A DNA stretch of 37,258 nucleotides from Candidatus Methylomirabilales bacterium (lineage in GTDB: Bacteria; Methylomirabilota; Methylomirabilia; Methylomirabilales; CSP1-5): contig JBHIAH010000019.1 in the NCBI GenBank assembly GCA_046758505.1, positions 1-37,258 of the forward strand, given 5' to 3'. Positions 1 through 6,000 of this stretch are shown in pieces. A program made the position numbers. Every line of letters starts with the position of its first letter. Position 1 is the first letter of the stretch.

Positions 1-3000
1 AGAAAGATCTGAGGATTCAATATCATGGCGCGACAGAGGCCTACCCGCTGCTGCTCTCCCCCACTCAGCTCATGGGGGTACCGTTGGGCATAGGAAAGCG
101 GCAGGTTCACCAGCGTCATGAGTTGCTCGGTCCGCGCCTTGATTCGCTCCGAATCCCATTTGGCGAGCCGCGCGAGGAGGGTGATGTTTGCCTCAACCGT
201 CAAATGCGGAAAGAGGCCAGTCCCTTGGACCGCATACCCGATTCGCAATCGGAGTTCGGGGAGGTGTTGATAGTCGATGGGCTTTCCGAAGACGGATACG
301 TGTCCCTGGCTCGGCCGTACCAACCCGTTGATCAGTTGTAGCAGCGTCGATTTCCCACTCCCGCTCGGGCCGACGACCGCTGTGGTCACGAGCTCTGTGA
401 AGGTAAGATCGATGTCCTGAACGGCTTTTGCGTCGCCGTAGAACTTGCTGATTTTGTCGAGTGCAATCTGTGCCATTCAATGACCGCAAGGCGAACGCCT
501 ACATGCGTGCGCGCAGCACGCCCCTCACCTCAGGCAGGTGCGAAAGCCCGCCATCACATCACGCCGGTCGGGGGTATAGTAGTTCCGCCAGGTATTCCGG
601 ATCATGCGGGAGCGCGTGGCCCAACTGCCGCCACGCAGGACCTTGTGGGTTCCAAACCACGGCTGCGAATACTCCTTGTACGGGTCAGCCACGAAGCCGG
701 GGTACGGTCCAAAGGCAGTGCTCGTCCATTCCCACACGTTGCCGATCATTTGCCGACAACCGAACGGGCTGTCGCCGTCGGGCAGCGCGCCGACGTCGAT
801 GCACCCCCCCGCGTGCCCGTCGAGGTTGGCCCGACTGGGGGATAGAGGTTCATCCCCCCACGGAAAGCTCCGCTTGTGCCCGGACAGTCCCCAGCTGTCG
901 GGCGTAGGCTCGGCGCTCGCCGCCGCTTCCCATTCAGCCTCGGTCGGCAAACGCCGGCCTGCCCATCGGCAGTAGGCCTCGGCCTCGTACCAGTTCACGT
1001 GGATGATGGGGTGGTGCTCCTCTAGTGGCACGATTTCGTCATACCGCCTCCGGCTCCAGCGACCGCCAGCGTCGCGATGCCAATAGACGGGGTGCTCGGC
1101 ACGCTCTCGCTCCCGCCACCGCCACCCCTCTTCGCTCCAGAACTCCCGCCTGCGATAGCCCGTGTCTTCCACGAACGCCACAAACTCGCCGTTGGTCACC
1201 GCCGCGCGCGCAATACGAAAGGGCTGCAGCGTGACGGGATGGGCCCACTTTTCATTGTCGAACACGAAAGGGAGATCCGGCGTCGCGCCGAGGAGGAATG
1301 TCCCTCCGGGAATCTCCGCATCGCCAACCAGCGGCCCGTCCCCCGCCTGCCCGGCGGGGACCTCTTCGGAAAGAGCGGTGAGTTGCGGGGGCGGGTATCC
1401 GAGCGTCTGCCGGGTGTAGGTGAACGCCTCATCGTGCATGTCCTCGTGGAACACAGCCAGGCGGTGAAAGTAGATCTCCTCCCCGTTCAGCTCGATCGAG
1501 CCGAGCCGCTGGACGATCCGGTTCATCACCTGCTGCATGTAAGCCAAGGTCTCTTCTCTCGACGGAAGCGGGAGGTCCCACCGGGTGTCGTGCGGTATCG
1601 CCATGGAGTCGTACAGCGCATCGGCATCCGCACGTATGGGCTCCGCCTTGCCGCAATGCCGCAAGACCCACTTTTCTTGGAACCACGCCACATGTCCGAT
1701 CTCCCACAGGAGCGGGTTCACGATGGCGAGGCGGGGCCCCATCATTTGCTCGTCGGTCAGGTCAGCGATCAGGGCGAGGGTCCGTGCACGGCCATCGATC
1801 AGCACGTGAGCCAACTCGGCAGCCGAAAGCGTGGCATGCTCATCCATGAGTGACCCCCACTGCGTGACAAACGCCGGGATGTTTTGGTCGGACGACGGAG
1901 TGCATCTACCCCCACACGGCCTCGGCCGTTTCCACGATCACGCGCAACTTGCGCTTCTCTTCTTCCACCGAGATGCGGTTGCCGATGATCGAGCTGGCGA
2001 ACCCACACTGGGGACCAAGGGCGAGCCGCTCTAACGGCATGAACCGGCTGGCCTCCCGGATGCGCCCGGTCAACTCCTCTTGGGTCTCGAGCCGCGCGTT
2101 CTTGGTGGAGACCAGCCCCAGGACGACGATCTTATCGTCAGGCACATCCCGCAGTGGCGCGAAGGACCCGGACCGGGCGTCGTCGTATTCGAGCAACAGC
2201 CGCTGGGCGCGGATTCCCCGGAAGAGACTTTTGGCGATCGATTCGTACCCCCCTTCGGACAGCCACCGGCTGCCCTGGTTGCCCCGTCAGAGGTGGAAGC
2301 CAAAGGTCACTCCTGGAAAGTCCCCCATCACCGCATTGTCCATCTCCAGGCCCCGTTTCAGCCACTGCTCGATGCTCCACCCCTGCGCCTCATAGAAGGC
2401 CCGGGTTTTCGGGTCGATCAGCAGAGCATAATGGGGCGCATCGAGCTGGATGTATGCCGCCCCCAGGCGAACCAACTCGCTCACCTCGCTGACCAGGATG
2501 TCCGTGACATCCGCCAGAAAATCATCCAGGGTGGGATAAGCGTTCGTGGAGTGCTCAGGCGACCAGAAGTTCACCCACAGGCTGGGACTCGGCAACGTGA
2601 TCTTGGGGATCCGCGTGGTGCGGGCTCGCAGATACGTAAACTCCTCCGCCGAGAGGTGGCGCCGGCGGCTGAGCCTGCCCACGACTCCCACAGCGGCCGG
2701 CCGCTCCAGATGCCAATCCCCCACCTCTGCATCGCCAGACCAGTCACCCCACAGAAAGGCCTCCAGGGGACACGCACCGAATCCGTCAACCGCCGCCGTC
2801 ATCTGGCTCTGAAACGACTGGCGGCGCATCTCCCCGTCGGTGACCACCTCGAGACCTACCTCCTCCTGGAGTGCCACCGCCTCATCGACGGCGCGGTCCT
2901 CGATTCCCTTGAAGGCCGCCTGCCGGATCGTCGCGGCGGCAAGATCCTGCTGGGCCTTCAACAGCCAGTGAGGTCGCAACAGGCTTCCGACGACATCGGC

Positions 3001-6000
3001 GCGGATTGCCTTCATGCCCCTTTCCGCCTCTCCGCCTGGAGAGTAGTCGGCCCGAAACATCGTGCCAGACCCCGAGCGAACGATTCTACTGCGCGACGGC
3101 GGAGAGCGAAAGGGCAAAGAGGTGATCCGTGTCCGTATCCCACCGGAGCAGGTTGAGGCCGGCCTCTCTAAGCATCGCCTCGACCATCGCGCGCGTATAT
3201 TTGCAGCTAATCTCTGTCCGGATCGATTCCCCCCGCACAAAGTGTACCGCGAGATCGATCGCGTCAATCGCCACGTGATGCGACTCGCGGGCGACCAGAT
3301 GCATCTCGATTCGTGACTCGTCGCGGTTGTAAAAGGCGAGATGGTCGAACCGATCCGGAGCGAAATCGGCCTCCAGGTGTCGATTGATAACGGAAAGGAT
3401 GTTCCGGTTGAAGGCGGCGGTCACGCCCGCGGCATCATTGTACGCCCCCTCCAGGAGACCCACATCCTTCACCAGGTCCGTACCCAGCAAGAATCGGTCC
3501 TCCGGGGCGAGCTGGCGGACGACGTTCCGGAGAAAGCCGGTGGCCTCATCGGGCGTCAGGTTTCCAATCGTTCCCCCTAAAAAGATCACCAATCGAGGTC
3601 CCCCTCCCTGGAGGATCTCCACCGGTTGCTCGAAGTCGCCAATCAGGCCGTGGACGCGCAATCCCGGGTAAACCTCACCGAGCGCGTGGGCCGTCTCCCG
3701 AAGCAGGTCTTCGCTGACATCGACTGGCACATAGCAATCGAGCAGCGCGGCACGCGCCATCGCGTTGAGGAGGATGCGGGTCTTGCGCGAACTGCCCGAC
3801 CCGAATTCCACCAGGGTCGTGGGCCGACACGATGCGATCACGTCATCGGCGATCTCTGTGAGCACAGCACGCTCGGTGCGCGTCGGGTAGTACTCCGGAA
3901 GCTCGCAGATCTGCTCGAAGAGGGCTGCGCCCCGGGCGTCGTAAAAGTACTTGGGGGGCAATTCCTTTGGGGTCTTGGTCAGGCCACAGCGGACATCCTC
4001 GGCCAGCCGGGCAAACGGGTTTCCGCCCCCCGAATGGAGACCGATATGAATCCTAGACTCATGGTCCGATGGCACCATCGACGTCGGCCCCACAACCGCT
4101 GACCACCCTCATCTTATTATTTCGCCCCGAGTTGCTCCTGTGCGGCTCGCGCAAAACGCTCCAGACTGGTCAGGTGGCTTGGCAACTCTTCGCTCAGCGA
4201 CGCGTCTTCCGTACCGGGGTCAAGGACGAGCCGATTGCGGATCTCGATGAGCTGGCCCAGTTCGCGAGCCAGACCCGGCTCGAGCTGACCAACCTCTGCC
4301 AGGACCTCGGGAATATCCGCGAAGTCTCTGGGAGGCCGGAGTTTCATGGCAGTGATGAGCTCAAGACAGACCGCAAGCGCACATGTAATGGCGGACTGAA
4401 GAAAATAGCGGCCGGCTCCCTCTTGAATCGGATCCGCTGCGGCCGCCTTCTCGAAGCCTCGCAGTTGACCGATGCAGCGTTCCATCTGCCCAAGCCTTGC
4501 TGTCATCTCGTCCCTGCGGATCGTCACGGCGTCCTCCATCGGATGCAGCTCCCACCCGAGCATCTGCCTGAGATCGAAGTACCGCCCCCAGACACCTCTC
4601 TCAAAGGCGATCCGCGCCTCTTCGTCACGGCTGTAGACCACCCGGCCCGCCGTGAGGACAGCACCACGAAATGTCAATGGTGTCTCGTTCAGAATCCGCA
4701 CCCCGGCGCCGGGAACCGCCAGCATCTCTTCCAGTAAAGTCTCCAGGCGAATCTCCACATGGAAGTAACTCCCGGGTGGAAGGTTTGGGTCCATAAAGGC
4801 AGCGATCTGCACATCACGAAGGGCGGGAAAATCCTCGGGCATGGCGATGCCGTAGGCGAACAGGGTCGGGGTCTCGCCGAGTAAGTTCTCTGCCTCCGCC
4901 TGGAGCCGCTCGAAGAGTTGAGATCGCTCACAGTTCATGGTTCAACGTGGAGGGGAGAGAGTTGAGAGCCCAGAGCTGAGCGTTCACCGTCCACGGTTCG
5001 CAGTCATTTCACCGTTCCTGGTTCACGGATTGGCAACTCCGCCTTGACTGTCAACCACGAACTGTGAACCATGAACCGATCAATAGGTCTGCGGTCCGCC
5101 TTCAGCGCAGTCGCCGCCGGAGCTCCGGGAAATCATCGATCAACACATCGGGTCCCGCTGCCCGAAGATCCGCGACCGGCCGCAGGCCGTACGTCACCCC
5201 CACGCTATAGAGCCCCGCCCGCTTTGCCATCTCGACATCAACCGGACTATCCCCCACCATCGCCGCCAGTCTACTCTCCACGCCGGTGGCGCTGAGAACC
5301 CGCCGGGCAGGCTCCGGATGCGGTTTTCGCTCGACCGTGCTGTCGCCGCCCAACACCACGTCGAAGTGGCCTGAGATGGCAAGCCCCTCGAGGATGCGGA
5401 CCGTGAACTCAAGCGGCTTGTTGGTCACGATCGCCTTTCGCTTTCCCTGGAAATGCTCGAGGGTTTCCCGAACCCCCTGATAGAGGCAGGTCGCATCCAG
5501 CAGGTGCACCGCGTAATATTCCCGGAAGAACCCGACCCCGGCCTCCAGGACCCCCAGATCATCGGGACCGAGTGCCCGGCTGAGGAGAGTCTGCACCCCG
5601 TCACCGACGTACCGGCAGACCTCCTCTACAGAGAGCGGGGCCCGTCCAAGTTTCTCCAGGGCGTGATTAACCGCTGCCGTGAGGTCGGCCCGGGTATCGG
5701 CGAGCGTCCCGTCCAGATCGAAGACGAGGAGGTCCACATACTTGGCTCCCCTCACCCTCTCCTCCTCGCTGCAAGATACTCCGCGATCCGCCGAACCCCT
5801 TCCCGGAGGTTATCGAGGGAATTGGCGTACGAAAAGCGGATGTGCCCTTCCCCCCCGCTCCCAAAGTCGATCCCCGGGGTGACCGCCACCTTGGCCTGCT
5901 CGAGGAGCTCAAAGGCAAACCGATACGAGTCGGCCGCAAAGGCCGTCGCATCGGCCAGGACGTAGAACGCCCCCTGCGGCTCCCGGGAAATGATGAAACC

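Follow-up and report, generated by a model that had tools for sequence, protein, structure and literature searches.

Residue roles have been described for the methionine synthase MetE of E. coli and for MesD (Price et al., PMC7857596). For proteins of the 1YPX/YxjG type, labelled 'methionine synthase II', no member with a known reaction was found. SenA-type enzymes are a small minority of their enzyme class (1,514 of 39,678, as counted in the ovoselenol preprint). The selenoneine-type operons considered here, which make the selenium antioxidant selenoneine, contain senA, egtD, an ergothioneine-type ABC importer and sometimes senB. The MetE-like gene described below, referred to as gene X, belongs to a family missing from the selenoprotein table of a 2026 review (PMC13188914), from the deep-Sep paper and from NCBIfam release 20, as the earlier note had stated for current selenoprotein lists. 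A literature search found no published record of it as a selenoprotein family, and the MetE-like family is also absent from the 2026 table of genes co-encoded with this (EgtB/SenA) enzyme class.

The window, a stretch of 37,258 nucleotides from a Candidatus Methylomirabilales genome that was analysed as a whole, carries gene X at positions 1906..3015 on the minus strand, with its ATG at 3015 and a TAG stop at 1908-1906. Translation of this frame gives 369 codons with a single in-frame TGA, codon 243 (2289-2287), and the surrounding residues read FHL-U-RGN. A single Pfam Meth_synt_2 match (48.2 bits, cut-off 21) spans residues 18-365. PDB entry 1ypx aligns at E 3.4e-47; its HICRGN pairs with HL(U)RGN, and PQCGFAS is the same in both. 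These results reproduce what the earlier note had reported, namely that two gene calls form one 369-aa gene of the Meth_synt_2 family and that 1ypx aligns at both zinc-ligand motifs. None of the NCBIfam methionine-synthase models exceeded its cut-off on gene X (239 against 313; 217 against 576). The AlphaFold2 model of the product has a pLDDT of 93.3, and Foldseek returned full-length matches to 1ypx and to MetE C-terminal barrels (TMq 0.74-0.77 for 1ypx and T. maritima MetE). As modelled, the protein has one domain, a 'core MetE' (beta/alpha)8 barrel of the 1YPX/YxjG type, of which the 3' part by itself would make up one third.

The UGA codon 243 (2287..2289, minus strand) stands in place of the first cysteine of the MetE zinc motif, H241-x-C243, where selenocysteine (Sec) had been proposed. 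The same genome encodes SelB (333 bits), tRNA-Sec (80 bits), SelD (407 bits) and SelA (607 bits), and its selD itself carries one TGA. Across the family, residue 243 is TGA in 27 non-identical loci, the window's included, and Cys in 108. A single-protein scan of species genomes gave 16 TGA and 25 Cys among 41 loci, where the earlier note had tallied 37 TGA and 43 Cys, and metagenomes gave 8 TGA and 71 Cys among 79. A search of 251 Methylomirabilota genomes added nine TGA loci, five of them already in the 41-locus set; these nine foreign genomes, the same number as had been counted before, have one TGA each at 76-81% identity, with '*' at residue 243 in 9/9. In 24/24 Sec loci the protein matches that of the window as closely upstream of the TGA as downstream of it (with identities of 0.79/0.77 and 0.81/0.81, for instance). 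Contigs from 4/4 metagenome runs of one study cover codon 2287-2289 free of variants, and the TGA is therefore not an assembly error.

It is extremely improbable that TGA 243 is a true stop, whether in a recent pseudogene or in a gene of two pieces, or that it reflects a sequencing error or codes for another amino acid. Gene callers do break gene X at this codon, and one database relative is translated with W there (HLWRGN). Against such readings stand the recurrence of TGA, with Cys as its alternative, in several phyla, the even conservation on both sides, the four variant-free runs, the full Sec machinery, and the mere third of a barrel that the 3' part alone would form. TGA is also the commonest ordinary stop in this genome, ending 530 of 1043 long ORFs as well as senA of the window. 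The Sec machinery, the 27 TGA loci and the equal conservation support the proposal, made in the earlier note, that gene X is an intact selenoprotein gene in which UGA243 would be read as Sec. Though seemingly broken by a stop, it is most likely the gene of an entire methionine-synthase-like zinc enzyme that has Sec at a predicted metal-binding position.

A hairpin inside the reading frame, a candidate bacterial SECIS, was located where one had been noted after the UGA. It occupies 2257..2275 on the minus strand, starts 11 nt after the UGA and has an 8-bp stem (GGGCAGCC/GGCUGUCC) closed by a GGU loop. SelB would read UGA243 as Sec with the aid of this short structure. The loop is G(G/U)U in 27/27 non-identical Sec loci (GGU in 25, GUU in 2), a stem of at least 5 bp is present in 26/27, and the five core pairs form in 23-24 of 24 distinct Sec sequences; one C-G to A-U double change preserves a core pair. 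In selD of the same genome, a 9-bp stem of similar kind carries a GUG triloop. Part of the stem is encoded by the same peptide in Cys forms too. Among Cys loci with the same S-R-W-L peptide, Arg is CGC in 34/42, which gives a GCU loop. The G(G/U)U loop of the Sec loci depends on a synonymous Arg codon that is absent from most Cys forms, related sequences sharing both loop and codon choice by descent. The 71-nt segment that contains the hairpin is no more stably folded than shuffled versions of it (z -0.12), and mean folding energy is the same for Sec and Cys loci (-18.4 and -18.0). The folding energies being unremarkable, it is the loop and the codon choice that carry the RNA argument.

Gene X lies between egtD and senA, as previously described, and both flanks were confirmed. 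Upstream, at 3086..4093 (minus strand), is EgtD, the histidine N-alpha-trimethyltransferase that makes hercynine (TIGR03438, 368.5 bits, cut-off 290.9; Pfam Methyltransf_33, E 5e-110). Downstream in the same operon, at 525..1847 (minus strand), is a SenA-type non-haem-iron selenoxide synthase of 440 aa (NCBIfam SenA NF041186, 539.9 bits, cut-off 420). This SenA scores 360 on the EgtB model TIGR03440 (cut-off 360), its best PDB match is the OvsA-YNF variant 8ux5 (349.5 bits), and its N-E-H and Y/N/Y motif residues agree with the composite motif that the ovoselenol preprint gives for SenA. The operon had also been said to end in an EgtU-type transporter. The window does hold the opening 158 codons of a ProV-type ABC ATPase (3..476, minus strand; the contig ends inside the gene). 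The EgtU-type transporter itself lies outside it and is seen only in orthologous loci, which give its label weak support. In five of these (L025, L027, L028, L036 and L038) an OpuAC-type SBP/permease fusion follows the ATPase, and the SBP of L025 has EgtUC as its best PDB match (170.8 bits, against 152 for ProX).

The linkage extends beyond this genome. SenA flanks 9/9 of the foreign Methylomirabilota Sec loci and EgtD 8/9, the ninth contig being cut, in line with the flanks reported earlier. The earlier note had also claimed that only Sec forms, never Cys forms, lie beside senA/egtD, with sen genes at 0/3 Cys loci. This does not hold. Five Cys orthologues (63-66% identity) were found in Methylomirabilota; no sen genes lie within 1.5 kb of them, and with wider flanks 3/5 end a senA-egtD-ABC-permease/SBP operon. 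The contrast arose because flanks of 1.5 kb missed senA and egtD. Cys forms occur in sen operons of three genomes of another Methylomirabilota genus (G065, G056 and G055), and in a Nitrospinae genome (L046) a Cys form sits between egtD and senA in the order egtD-X-senA-senB. SelA was found in 5/5 genomes searched, including both Cys-form genomes tested (L046 and L029). Neither the pathway nor a genome's capacity for decoding Sec thus accounts for the choice between Sec and Cys. Linkage is kept across at least four gene orders: egtD-X-senA, senA-senB-X-egtD, senA-egtD-ABC-permease/SBP-X, and X divergent from the transporter. The gene X clade, with interchangeable Sec and Cys forms, is a recurrent optional accessory gene of selenoneine-type operons in several phyla. 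The family's spread over many phyla and its tie to these operons, both claimed before, stand, the tie for both forms. Either senA or egtD, or both, lie within 6 kb of 10/16 Sec loci; the other 6/16 have no nearby sen gene, nor do any of the 79 metagenome loci, many of which are on short contigs. The role of the family is therefore wider than the sen operon. In the genus to which the window's genome belongs, the operon can do without the gene: gene X is present in 8/14 genomes, SenA is over cut-off in 13/14, and egtD directly adjoins senA in 5/5 genomes examined that lack gene X.

The whole is probably best explained by a Sec-containing core-MetE enzyme, optional in selenoneine-type operons, that may methylate homocysteine. 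Its predicted zinc ligands, besides residue 243, are His241 (2293..2295), Glu276 (2188..2190) and Cys337 (2005..2007), all on the minus strand. His241, equivalent to E. coli MetE H641, aligns to the H-x-C of MesD (3rpd) and 1ypx; Glu276, in LLLEYDD, would match MetE E665 by motif order; and Cys337, in PQCGF, equivalent to MetE C726, aligns to P-D-C-G of Candida MetE and C-G of 3rpd. Alignment A1 is invariant at G10 S11, D60 G61 E62, D192 P194, H241, C/U243, E276 and C337. Zinc would be bound with the selenolate as a ligand, and Sec in place of Cys would tune the metal site (a softer ligand, a lower pKa, easier re-reduction after oxidation) and leave the reaction unchanged. The conserved homocysteine-binding residues point to zinc/selenolate-assisted methyl transfer to homocysteine; that the enzyme methylates zinc-activated homocysteine is proposed tentatively. 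In the operon, gene X would turn homocysteine back to methionine and so feed the three SAM-dependent methylations of EgtD. If regenerating SAM for EgtD were its only role, gene X would be expected in the far more numerous EgtB-type clusters too; the scored synthases beside it are all SenA-type except EgtB-like L058.

It is also conceivable, though unlikely, that gene X acts on a selenol of the pathway and not on bulk homocysteine. It could turn selenoneine into Se-methylselenoneine, or it could take a methyl group from Se-methylselenoneine that is imported, or from some other methylated or betaine donor, and pass it to homocysteine. Gene X would then count as a genuine fifth sen gene. Five model-scored adjoining synthases (the window's own, L046, L050, L184 and L185) are of the minority SenA type and nine more share 66-81% identity with SenA of the window, with L058 the one exception. 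The linkage survives rearrangement, the same operons hold an importer for whose binding domain the ergothioneine transporter EgtUC is the best match, relatives of gene X directly follow MttB-family quaternary-amine methyltransferase genes in L035 and L109, and methylated selenoneine is described as a natural metabolite in animals. However, the residues with which MetE binds homocysteine by its free amino and carboxyl groups are invariant. Selenoneine carries trimethylammonium and has the longer side chain of the two. Whether Sec or Cys, the majority of family members lack a nearby sen gene, 6/14 genus genomes keep the operon without gene X, and no bacterial Se-methylselenoneine pathway was found in the literature search.

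A redox enzyme, in which a Sec243-Cys337 selenenylsulfide couple reduces selenenic acid or diselenide forms of selenoneine, is distinctly unlikely. By the review PMC13188914, redox proteins make up most of the known bacterial selenoproteins, SenA chemistry as presented in the preprint gives an oxidised selenium product that needs reduction, both residues are invariant (Sec or Cys at 243) and neighbours in the MetE metal site, and FAD-dependent disulfide reductase genes lie near the L046 and L050 clusters. Yet His241, Glu276 and the homocysteine-binding Ser/Glu/Asp are invariant too and needless for a simple dithiol oxidoreductase, the whole fold matches MetE, and a thioredoxin-like CxxC/UxxC motif is absent from gene X. 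Very improbable is the version in the earlier note, by which specifically the Sec form serves selenium small-molecule metabolism and replaces missing steps such as SenB. The senA flanks of all nine foreign Sec loci in Methylomirabilota agree with it, and canonical SenB is over cut-off in 0/14 genus genomes, as had been reported, and in 0/5 further genomes with gene X in a sen operon. It is contradicted by the Cys forms in the four sen operons named above; L046 and L050 hold gene X together with canonical SenB (403 and 371.5 bits), and genus genomes without gene X keep senA, also without SenB. A SenB-like GT4 gene is present in 14/14 genus genomes, that of the window's genome adjoining a selenium-type LysR regulator and a putative selenate transporter.

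The homocysteine-methylating, core-MetE reading can be set beside the known methionine synthases. The genome also has a split MetE pair on contig C5 (PRK04326, 381.5 bits, just below the cut-off of 406), so gene X, if a methionine synthase, would not be its only one. The N-terminal barrel that serves folate in MetE is absent from gene X, so the methyl donor would not be folate on such a barrel. The three MetE residues that grip the amino-acid end of homocysteine are present as Ser11, Glu62 and Asp192, invariant in the gene X family, and the four MetE zinc-ligand positions are held by Sec243, His241, Glu276 and Cys337.

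The gene between egtD and senA that encodes a MetE-like protein, here called X, forms a single frame of 369 codons on the minus strand (3015-1906), opening with ATG after a GGAG-rich stretch and ending in TAG. Its sole internal TGA is codon 243 (2289-2287, minus strand), within the peptide FHL-U-RGN. TGA serves as the stop of 530 of 1043 long ORFs in this genome, senA included, and has not been reassigned. The genome (149 contigs, 96.8% complete) carries the Sec machinery, with every component above its model cut-off (SelB 333 bits, tRNA-Sec 80 bits, SelA 607 bits, SelD 407 bits), and the SelD gene itself contains one in-frame TGA. 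Positions 2287-2289 were covered by contigs from four metagenome runs, all of one study and two of them possibly the source of the window's DNA, and zero variants were seen. An assembly error at codon 243 is therefore unlikely.

The same codon was compared across relatives of X. In a scan of one genome per species, 41 loci were recovered, 16 with TGA and 25 with TGC or TGT at residue 243. A six-frame search of 251 Methylomirabilota genomes, a tally that takes in the unpublished genomes G075, G216 and G217, returned nine foreign genomes with one TGA (76–81% identity) and five Cys orthologues (63–66% identity), and a metagenome scan of 79 loci gave 8 with TGA and 71 with Cys. After pooling and removal of identical rows, 27 Sec loci stood against 108 Cys loci at the same aligned codon. 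Taxonomic labels on the Sec loci include Methylomirabilota, Acidobacteria, Tectomicrobia, Anaerolineales, Nitrospinaceae, Desulfobacterales, Binatia and Planctomycetota. All 24 of the 24 Sec loci compared showed equal identity to X on either side of codon 243 (0.79/0.77 and 0.81/0.81 are examples), and the 3' third of the gene is therefore under the same protein-level selection as the rest. In X the UGA falls within one Pfam domain and one predicted barrel; among six further in-frame-TGA ORF pairs in the window, none has its TGA spanned by a Pfam domain. On sequence grounds, X is a real and unusual selenoprotein gene, and selenium incorporation is predicted.

In bacteria, a SECIS element is a hairpin soon after the UGA with a G in its apical loop, the loop lying 16–37 nt past the UGA. 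A candidate in-ORF SECIS hairpin of X occupies 2275-2257 (minus strand), with an 8-bp stem (GGGCAGCC/GGCUGUCC) that begins 11 nt past the UGA and a GGU loop at +20, so that both hairpin position and loop G agree with this model. Rfam, searched at gathering thresholds, returned 0 families in the window. The folding energy of the hairpin region was no better than that of shuffled sequences (z -0.12), and its mean did not separate Sec from Cys loci. Since energy fails on both counts, the RNA argument was made from the loop and the choice of codons instead. The Arg codon that forms the loop is CGG in 25 and CGU in 2 of 27 Sec loci, giving a G(G/U)U loop in all 27, whereas in Cys loci with the S-R-W-L peptide the same Arg is CGC (loop GCU) in 34 of 42 and CGG or CGU in 7; the Sec loci are kin to each other, so such counts exaggerate the number of independent events. 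Sec and Cys forms are interleaved on a quick tree. Each of the five core pairs forms in 23 or 24 of 24 distinct Sec sequences, with one C-G to A-U double change, and beyond them come a frequent mismatch and then two further pairs. The stem is partly dictated by the conserved S-R-W-L peptide. The selD gene of the same genome (C6:7795-8721, L015; GAG-U-ACK) carries a hairpin resembling that of X: 24 nt past its UGA comes a 9-bp stem closed by a GUG triloop. Each of the four metagenome runs shows a three- to seven-fold peak of summed contig depth over 2240-2283, the hairpin region, together with a break in the assembly graph; the exact stretch seems to be common to several related organisms in the samples.

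The Pfam domain Meth_synt_2 (PF01717) matches X as a single continuous segment over residues 18-365 (48.2 bits, cut-off 21). X aligns end to end with the Listeria protein of PDB entry 1ypx (E 3.4e-47, or 2.2e-81 with a profile), HL(U)RGN pairing with HICRGN and PQCGFAS with PQCGFAS. No NCBIfam methionine-synthase model was reached (PRK06520 239.1 bits against a cut-off of 313, PRK06233 217.3 against 576), and the N-terminal folate-binding barrel is absent from this 369-aa, single-barrel protein (TIGR01371 30.8 bits, cut-off 930). X is thus a 'core' form and not a MetE. An AlphaFold2 model (pLDDT 93.3, pTM 0.92) matched 1ypx, T. maritima MetE (TMq up to 0.77) and the core methionine synthase MesD over its full length.

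Across 22 aligned Sec and Cys forms, the residues G10 S11, D60 G61 E62, D192 P194, H241, C/U243, E276 and C337 are invariant. According to passages of PMC7857596 (Price et al. 2021), E. coli MetE binds zinc through H641, C643, E665 and C726 and homocysteine through S433, E484 and D599, and 3rpd is MesD with zinc and selenomethionine. A profile of the X alignment matched the H-x-C and C-G motifs in both 3rpd and 1ypx, and the GS (IGS), GE, D-x-P (D-E-P) and P-x-C-G motifs of Candida MetE. Aligned to 1ypx, 3rpd and MetE, the zinc-ligand pattern of X reads H241, U/C243, E276 and C337, and the homocysteine-binding Ser, Glu and Asp correspond to S11, E62 and D192, all invariant. By alignment, Sec243 takes the place of the first Cys zinc ligand, and the homocysteine site keeps its amino-acid-binding part intact. 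We infer that X binds zinc, and does so via selenium. Among the best 120 listed database relatives of X, 119 have Cys at the H-x-C site, one has W and none has Sec, and none of the names shown for them says selenoprotein. The relative with W (HLWRGN) is a Sec form in which some pipeline turned the TGA into tryptophan.

On the minus strand, the genes flanking X are separated from their neighbours by 48–70 nt. EgtD (3086-4093, minus strand; 368.5 bits, cut-off 290.9) is encoded upstream and a SenA-type enzyme (525-1847, minus strand; NF041186 539.9 bits, cut-off 420) downstream, followed by a ProV-type ABC ATPase gene that the contig end cuts off after 158 codons (3-476, minus strand). The earlier note had called the transporter at the end of this operon EgtU-type. 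In orthologous operons EgtUC is the best match to the binding domain (170.8 bits), with ProX next (152 bits), and the window itself holds only the start of the ATPase; the label is therefore plausible, not secure. Directly upstream of egtD, a 273-aa frame (4117-4938, minus strand) gave weak MntA-like and HepT-like matches in one frame, and its tblastn relatives adjoin egtD in several genomes of the genus (L026, L027, L179). MntA is a nucleotidyltransferase antitoxin and HepT an RNase toxin.

The best solved relative of the window SenA is the YNF variant of the ovoselenol synthase OvsA (8ux5, 349.5 bits), ahead of EgtB (270.7 bits) and V. paradoxus SenA (254 bits). According to passages of the ovoselenol preprint, hercynine-accepting SenA has Y, N and F/Y at three positions where histidine-accepting OvsA has M, Q and A. 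Aligned to 8ux5, the window enzyme shows N-x4-E-x2-H and, on a mapping that takes a 20-residue tag offset as given, would have Y, N and Y at these positions. With EgtD encoded next door, SenA-type function is the better reading. A second SenA-like fragment, 70% identical to the window SenA (187.9 bits on the SenA model), lies at the start of another contig of the genome (C45:3-527, L069), ahead of a PhsA/FdhA-like molybdopterin oxidoreductase gene; either a paralogue or a second strain in the bin could account for the fragment.

Canonical SenB was sought with TIGR04348 (cut-off 300), the model taken from the sen preprint. The best match in this genome reached 87.8 bits (C16:31918-32772), and none of the 14 genus genomes, nor any of 5 further genomes with X in a sen operon, has a SenB above cut-off. 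A GT4 gene aligning to the whole SenB model at 75–107 bits was found in 14 of 14 genus genomes and 4 of the 5 further ones; in G065 it lies about 4 kb from senA. This similarity makes the GT4 gene a candidate for a divergent SenB. The idea that X replaces SenB was rejected: two loci (L046, L050) have both genes, and the X-less genomes of the genus also have no SenB. In the present genome, C16:31912-45470 (L189; L020 1495-2544) is a selenium-related neighbourhood with the order gatB, GT4, LysR, selenate ABC binding protein, two PhnE permeases, a relative of the Rcas_1661-like (seleno)lipoprotein, and tRNA-Sec. Its GT4 gene aligns to SenB model positions 1-258 of 310 (88 bits), its LysR regulator is of the selenium-metabolism type (NF040786, 311 bits) and its binding protein is a putative selenate ABC component (TIGR04553, 339 bits). 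This GT4, found in 14 of 14 genus genomes, may be the lineage's missing SenB. SelD is encoded on another contig in one copy with a Sec codon (406.8 bits), no second copy being above cut-off, and this single enzyme could serve both pathways.

In the species-genome scan, senA and/or egtD lay within 6 kb of X in 10 of 16 Sec loci, two of the other six being contigs shorter than 4 kb, and SenA was encoded beside X in all nine foreign Methylomirabilota Sec loci. In a Planctomycetota Sec locus (L050) the order is senA - senB (371.5 bits) - X - egtD, and in L037 X is divergent from transporter - egtD - senA. It had been claimed that only Sec forms occur beside senA or egtD, and this part of the earlier note must be withdrawn, since Cys forms were found in the sen operons of four genomes or loci (L046, G065, G056 and G055). 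The Nitrospinae locus L046, with TGC at codon 243, reads egtD - X - senA (527.6 bits) - senB (TIGR04348 402.9 bits, cut-off 300). Cys orthologues from another Methylomirabilota genus had no sen genes within 1.5 kb; the wider flanks of G065 and G056 revealed senA (512 and 523 bits) - egtD - ABC ATPase - permease/SBP - X, and G055 has this order as far as its contig reaches, which stops inside egtD. No sen gene was found within about 8 kb of the Cys orthologue in G235, and the contig of G248 is too short to judge. The linkage is thus kept through at least four gene orders, in Sec and Cys forms alike. The 79 metagenome loci (8 with TGA), many on contigs shorter than 3 kb, had neither SenA nor EgtD in their flanks and lend no support to the operon link. 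An inability to decode Sec as the setting of Cys forms was ruled out for the genomes tested: SelA was above cut-off in five of five, two with a Cys form and three with a Sec form. The choice between Sec and Cys therefore does not track the ability to decode Sec.

Within the genus, X is optional. SenA was above cut-off in 13 of 14 genomes, a tally that takes in the unpublished G033, and X was present in 8 of 14; the other six, searched at E 1e-30, yielded a distant paralogue of X or nothing. In all five X-less genomes examined (G024, G028, G029, G031 and G035; completeness 79–99%), egtD is the immediate neighbour of senA, with about 100 nt between the two; an ABC ATPase follows senA in the fetched stretch of four of these genomes, and none was seen in G031. 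The core function of the operon can therefore do without X. These results demonstrate that the link of X to selenoneine operons is real and that it is neither Sec-specific nor obligatory.

Several roles for X can be considered. Conservation of the zinc and homocysteine residues favours a methyl transfer with homocysteine or its selenium analogue as acceptor, and X usually adjoins egtD, whose product requires three SAM, which suggests methionine regeneration. Methyl transfer to homocysteine to regenerate methionine would be the most likely reading from these sequences, and we favour it tentatively. An ordinary housekeeping role as methionine synthase is unlikely. Contig C5 of the same genome holds a split MetE (L068: 2724-3782 and 1720-2727, both minus strand), an N-half-like gene followed by a C-half gene (PRK04326 381.5 bits, cut-off 406; MetE model 311.7 bits), which is probably the housekeeping enzyme, and C4 encodes a homocysteine-methyltransferase domain near B12-binding proteins. 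Against methionine regeneration in the operon, the five neighbouring synthases that were scored are SenA-type and nine further ones are 66–81% identical to the window SenA; the synthase beside X in L058 is EgtB-like (TIGR03440 350 bits, SenA 325.5, both under cut-offs). SenA is a small minority of its enzyme class in the account given in passages of the ovoselenol preprint, and the families listed as co-encoded with that class (Table 1, PMC13674229, 2026) include no MetE-like one, a list from which split gene calls could hide Sec forms. Taken together, the SenA-type neighbours, the rarity of SenA and the lack of a co-encoded MetE-like family make selenium-specific methyl transfer, with selenoneine as acceptor or donor for instance, a live rival, if on balance an improbable one.

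In the fullest form of this rival, likewise improbable, X would be a fifth sen gene, whose zinc site, with a selenolate or thiolate ligand, would move a methyl group between homocysteine and the selenol of selenoneine or a related methylated or betaine donor, making or salvaging Se-methylselenoneine, for instance. MttB-family genes lie directly upstream of a Sec form (L035:4409-5965) and of a Cys form (L109:2221-3747); both are of the non-pyrrolysine type (trimethylamine model 322 bits, under cut-off), and some relatives of X adjoin betaine-type binding proteins. These neighbours hint at quaternary-amine methyl donors. A homocysteine S-methyltransferase gene (PF02574) lies 3 kb off in L035. 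If X were a fifth sen gene, its Zn-Se(Sec) catalytic centre would be the first in a natural enzyme, and X would catalyse the first bacterial step past selenoneine itself. A redox role of the Sec243/Cys337 pair is possible, but it leaves the other invariant residues unexplained. FAD-dependent pyridine-nucleotide disulfide oxidoreductases of the PRK06370 type were observed near two sen clusters (L046:11121-12518, minus strand; L050:6585-8654, plus strand, with a 230-aa N-terminal extension), and the same family makes up 4.0% among genes co-encoded with the synthase class (PMC13674229); these enzymes are possible selenoneine diselenide reductases. Most members of the X family have no sen gene nearby, so the general role of the family is wider than the sen operon.

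The prokaryotic selenoprotein table of a 2026 review (PMC13188914) contains no MetE-like or methionine-synthase family, nor does the deep-Sep paper. The main texts returned by a full-text literature search on selenoproteins and methionine synthase held nothing relevant, the groundwater selenoproteome survey and supplements lying outside its scope, and NCBIfam release 20 has no model for X. Because X is called as two fragments in annotation, the family is invisible in protein databases and gene-neighbourhood surveys. To our knowledge, almost all known selenoproteins use Sec for redox chemistry. Sec as a ligand of the catalytic zinc in an alkyl-transfer enzyme would, if true, be a new use of the 21st amino acid, and the natural Sec/Cys pair of the X family would then be a means of learning how selenium affects a zinc-thiolate centre. 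The repeated yet optional presence of X in selenoneine operons points to an undescribed accessory step of selenium-antioxidant metabolism, which may be methyl supply or product modification. With Cys forms in the same operon, the question shifts from why Sec accompanies selenoneine to what part the enzyme plays in the pathway. New from the window are the sen-operon setting of X, the Cys forms in that setting, the presence/absence polymorphism in one genus and the synonymous-codon signature of the hairpin.

Among known proteins, X is closest to the 1YPX/YxjG-YxjH type ('cobalamin-independent methionine synthase II family'), after which its database relatives are named and of which 1ypx is its best structural match. 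The two share length and a single barrel, and H-x-C-R-G-N and P-Q-C-G-F-A-S align residue for residue; 1ypx differs from X in having no Sec at the H-x-C site. X is set beside this type by sequence and fold, the type itself being without an established reaction or methyl donor. The catalytic barrel of MetE (E. coli, T. maritima, Candida, Arabidopsis) has the fold of X (TMq 0.71–0.77), and both keep the H-x-C ... E ... C zinc pattern and the homocysteine-binding S, E and D. However, MetE is about 750 aa long and has an N-terminal barrel for methyl-tetrahydrofolate polyglutamate that the 369-aa X does not, similarity in structural alignments is low (15–18%), and the first Cys ligand of MetE is Sec in X. 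The MesA-MesD core methionine synthases, in the passages of PMC7857596 that describe them, are single-domain MetE relatives that, like X, keep the zinc and homocysteine residues, and they use methyl donors other than free methyl-folate. MesD (3rpd) aligns with X, H-x-C and C-G included, yet is distant (E 4e-10 with one sequence). The YxjG/1YPX type has 0 occurrences in the text of PMC7857596, and neither a MesX partner nor a corrinoid protein, at which no search was aimed, is listed among the Pfam domains of the annotated X operons.

The described sen cluster is senA-senB-senC, sometimes with egtD, and some clusters include a putative selenate transporter and betaine-type ABC genes, as reported in passages of Kayrouz et al. 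(bioRxiv 10.1101/2022.04.13.486033). The X locus resembles it in that EgtD and a SenA above the model cut-off adjoin X, and the genome or orthologous loci likewise contain a putative selenate transporter and betaine-type ABC genes. It differs in that canonical SenB (88 bits against 300) is missing from the genome, that in place of a separate SenC the one Sec-containing SelD encoded elsewhere may serve, and that X is an extra, MetE-like gene, of which the main-text passages of the sen literature make no mention. The decoding of X resembles that of genes of the fdhF type. E. coli fdhF is a bacterial gene with an in-ORF SECIS, and in such genes, as in X, the UGA is closely followed by a SelB-type hairpin within the coding region. 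No published case of zinc ligated by Sec at a site of non-redox alkyl transfer turned up in literature searches. In [NiFeSe] hydrogenase and, with Mo, in formate dehydrogenase H, Sec is a metal ligand. In X as in these enzymes, Sec stands in for a metal-ligand Cys of homologues; unlike theirs, the metal of X would be zinc, in a predicted non-redox site for alkyl transfer.
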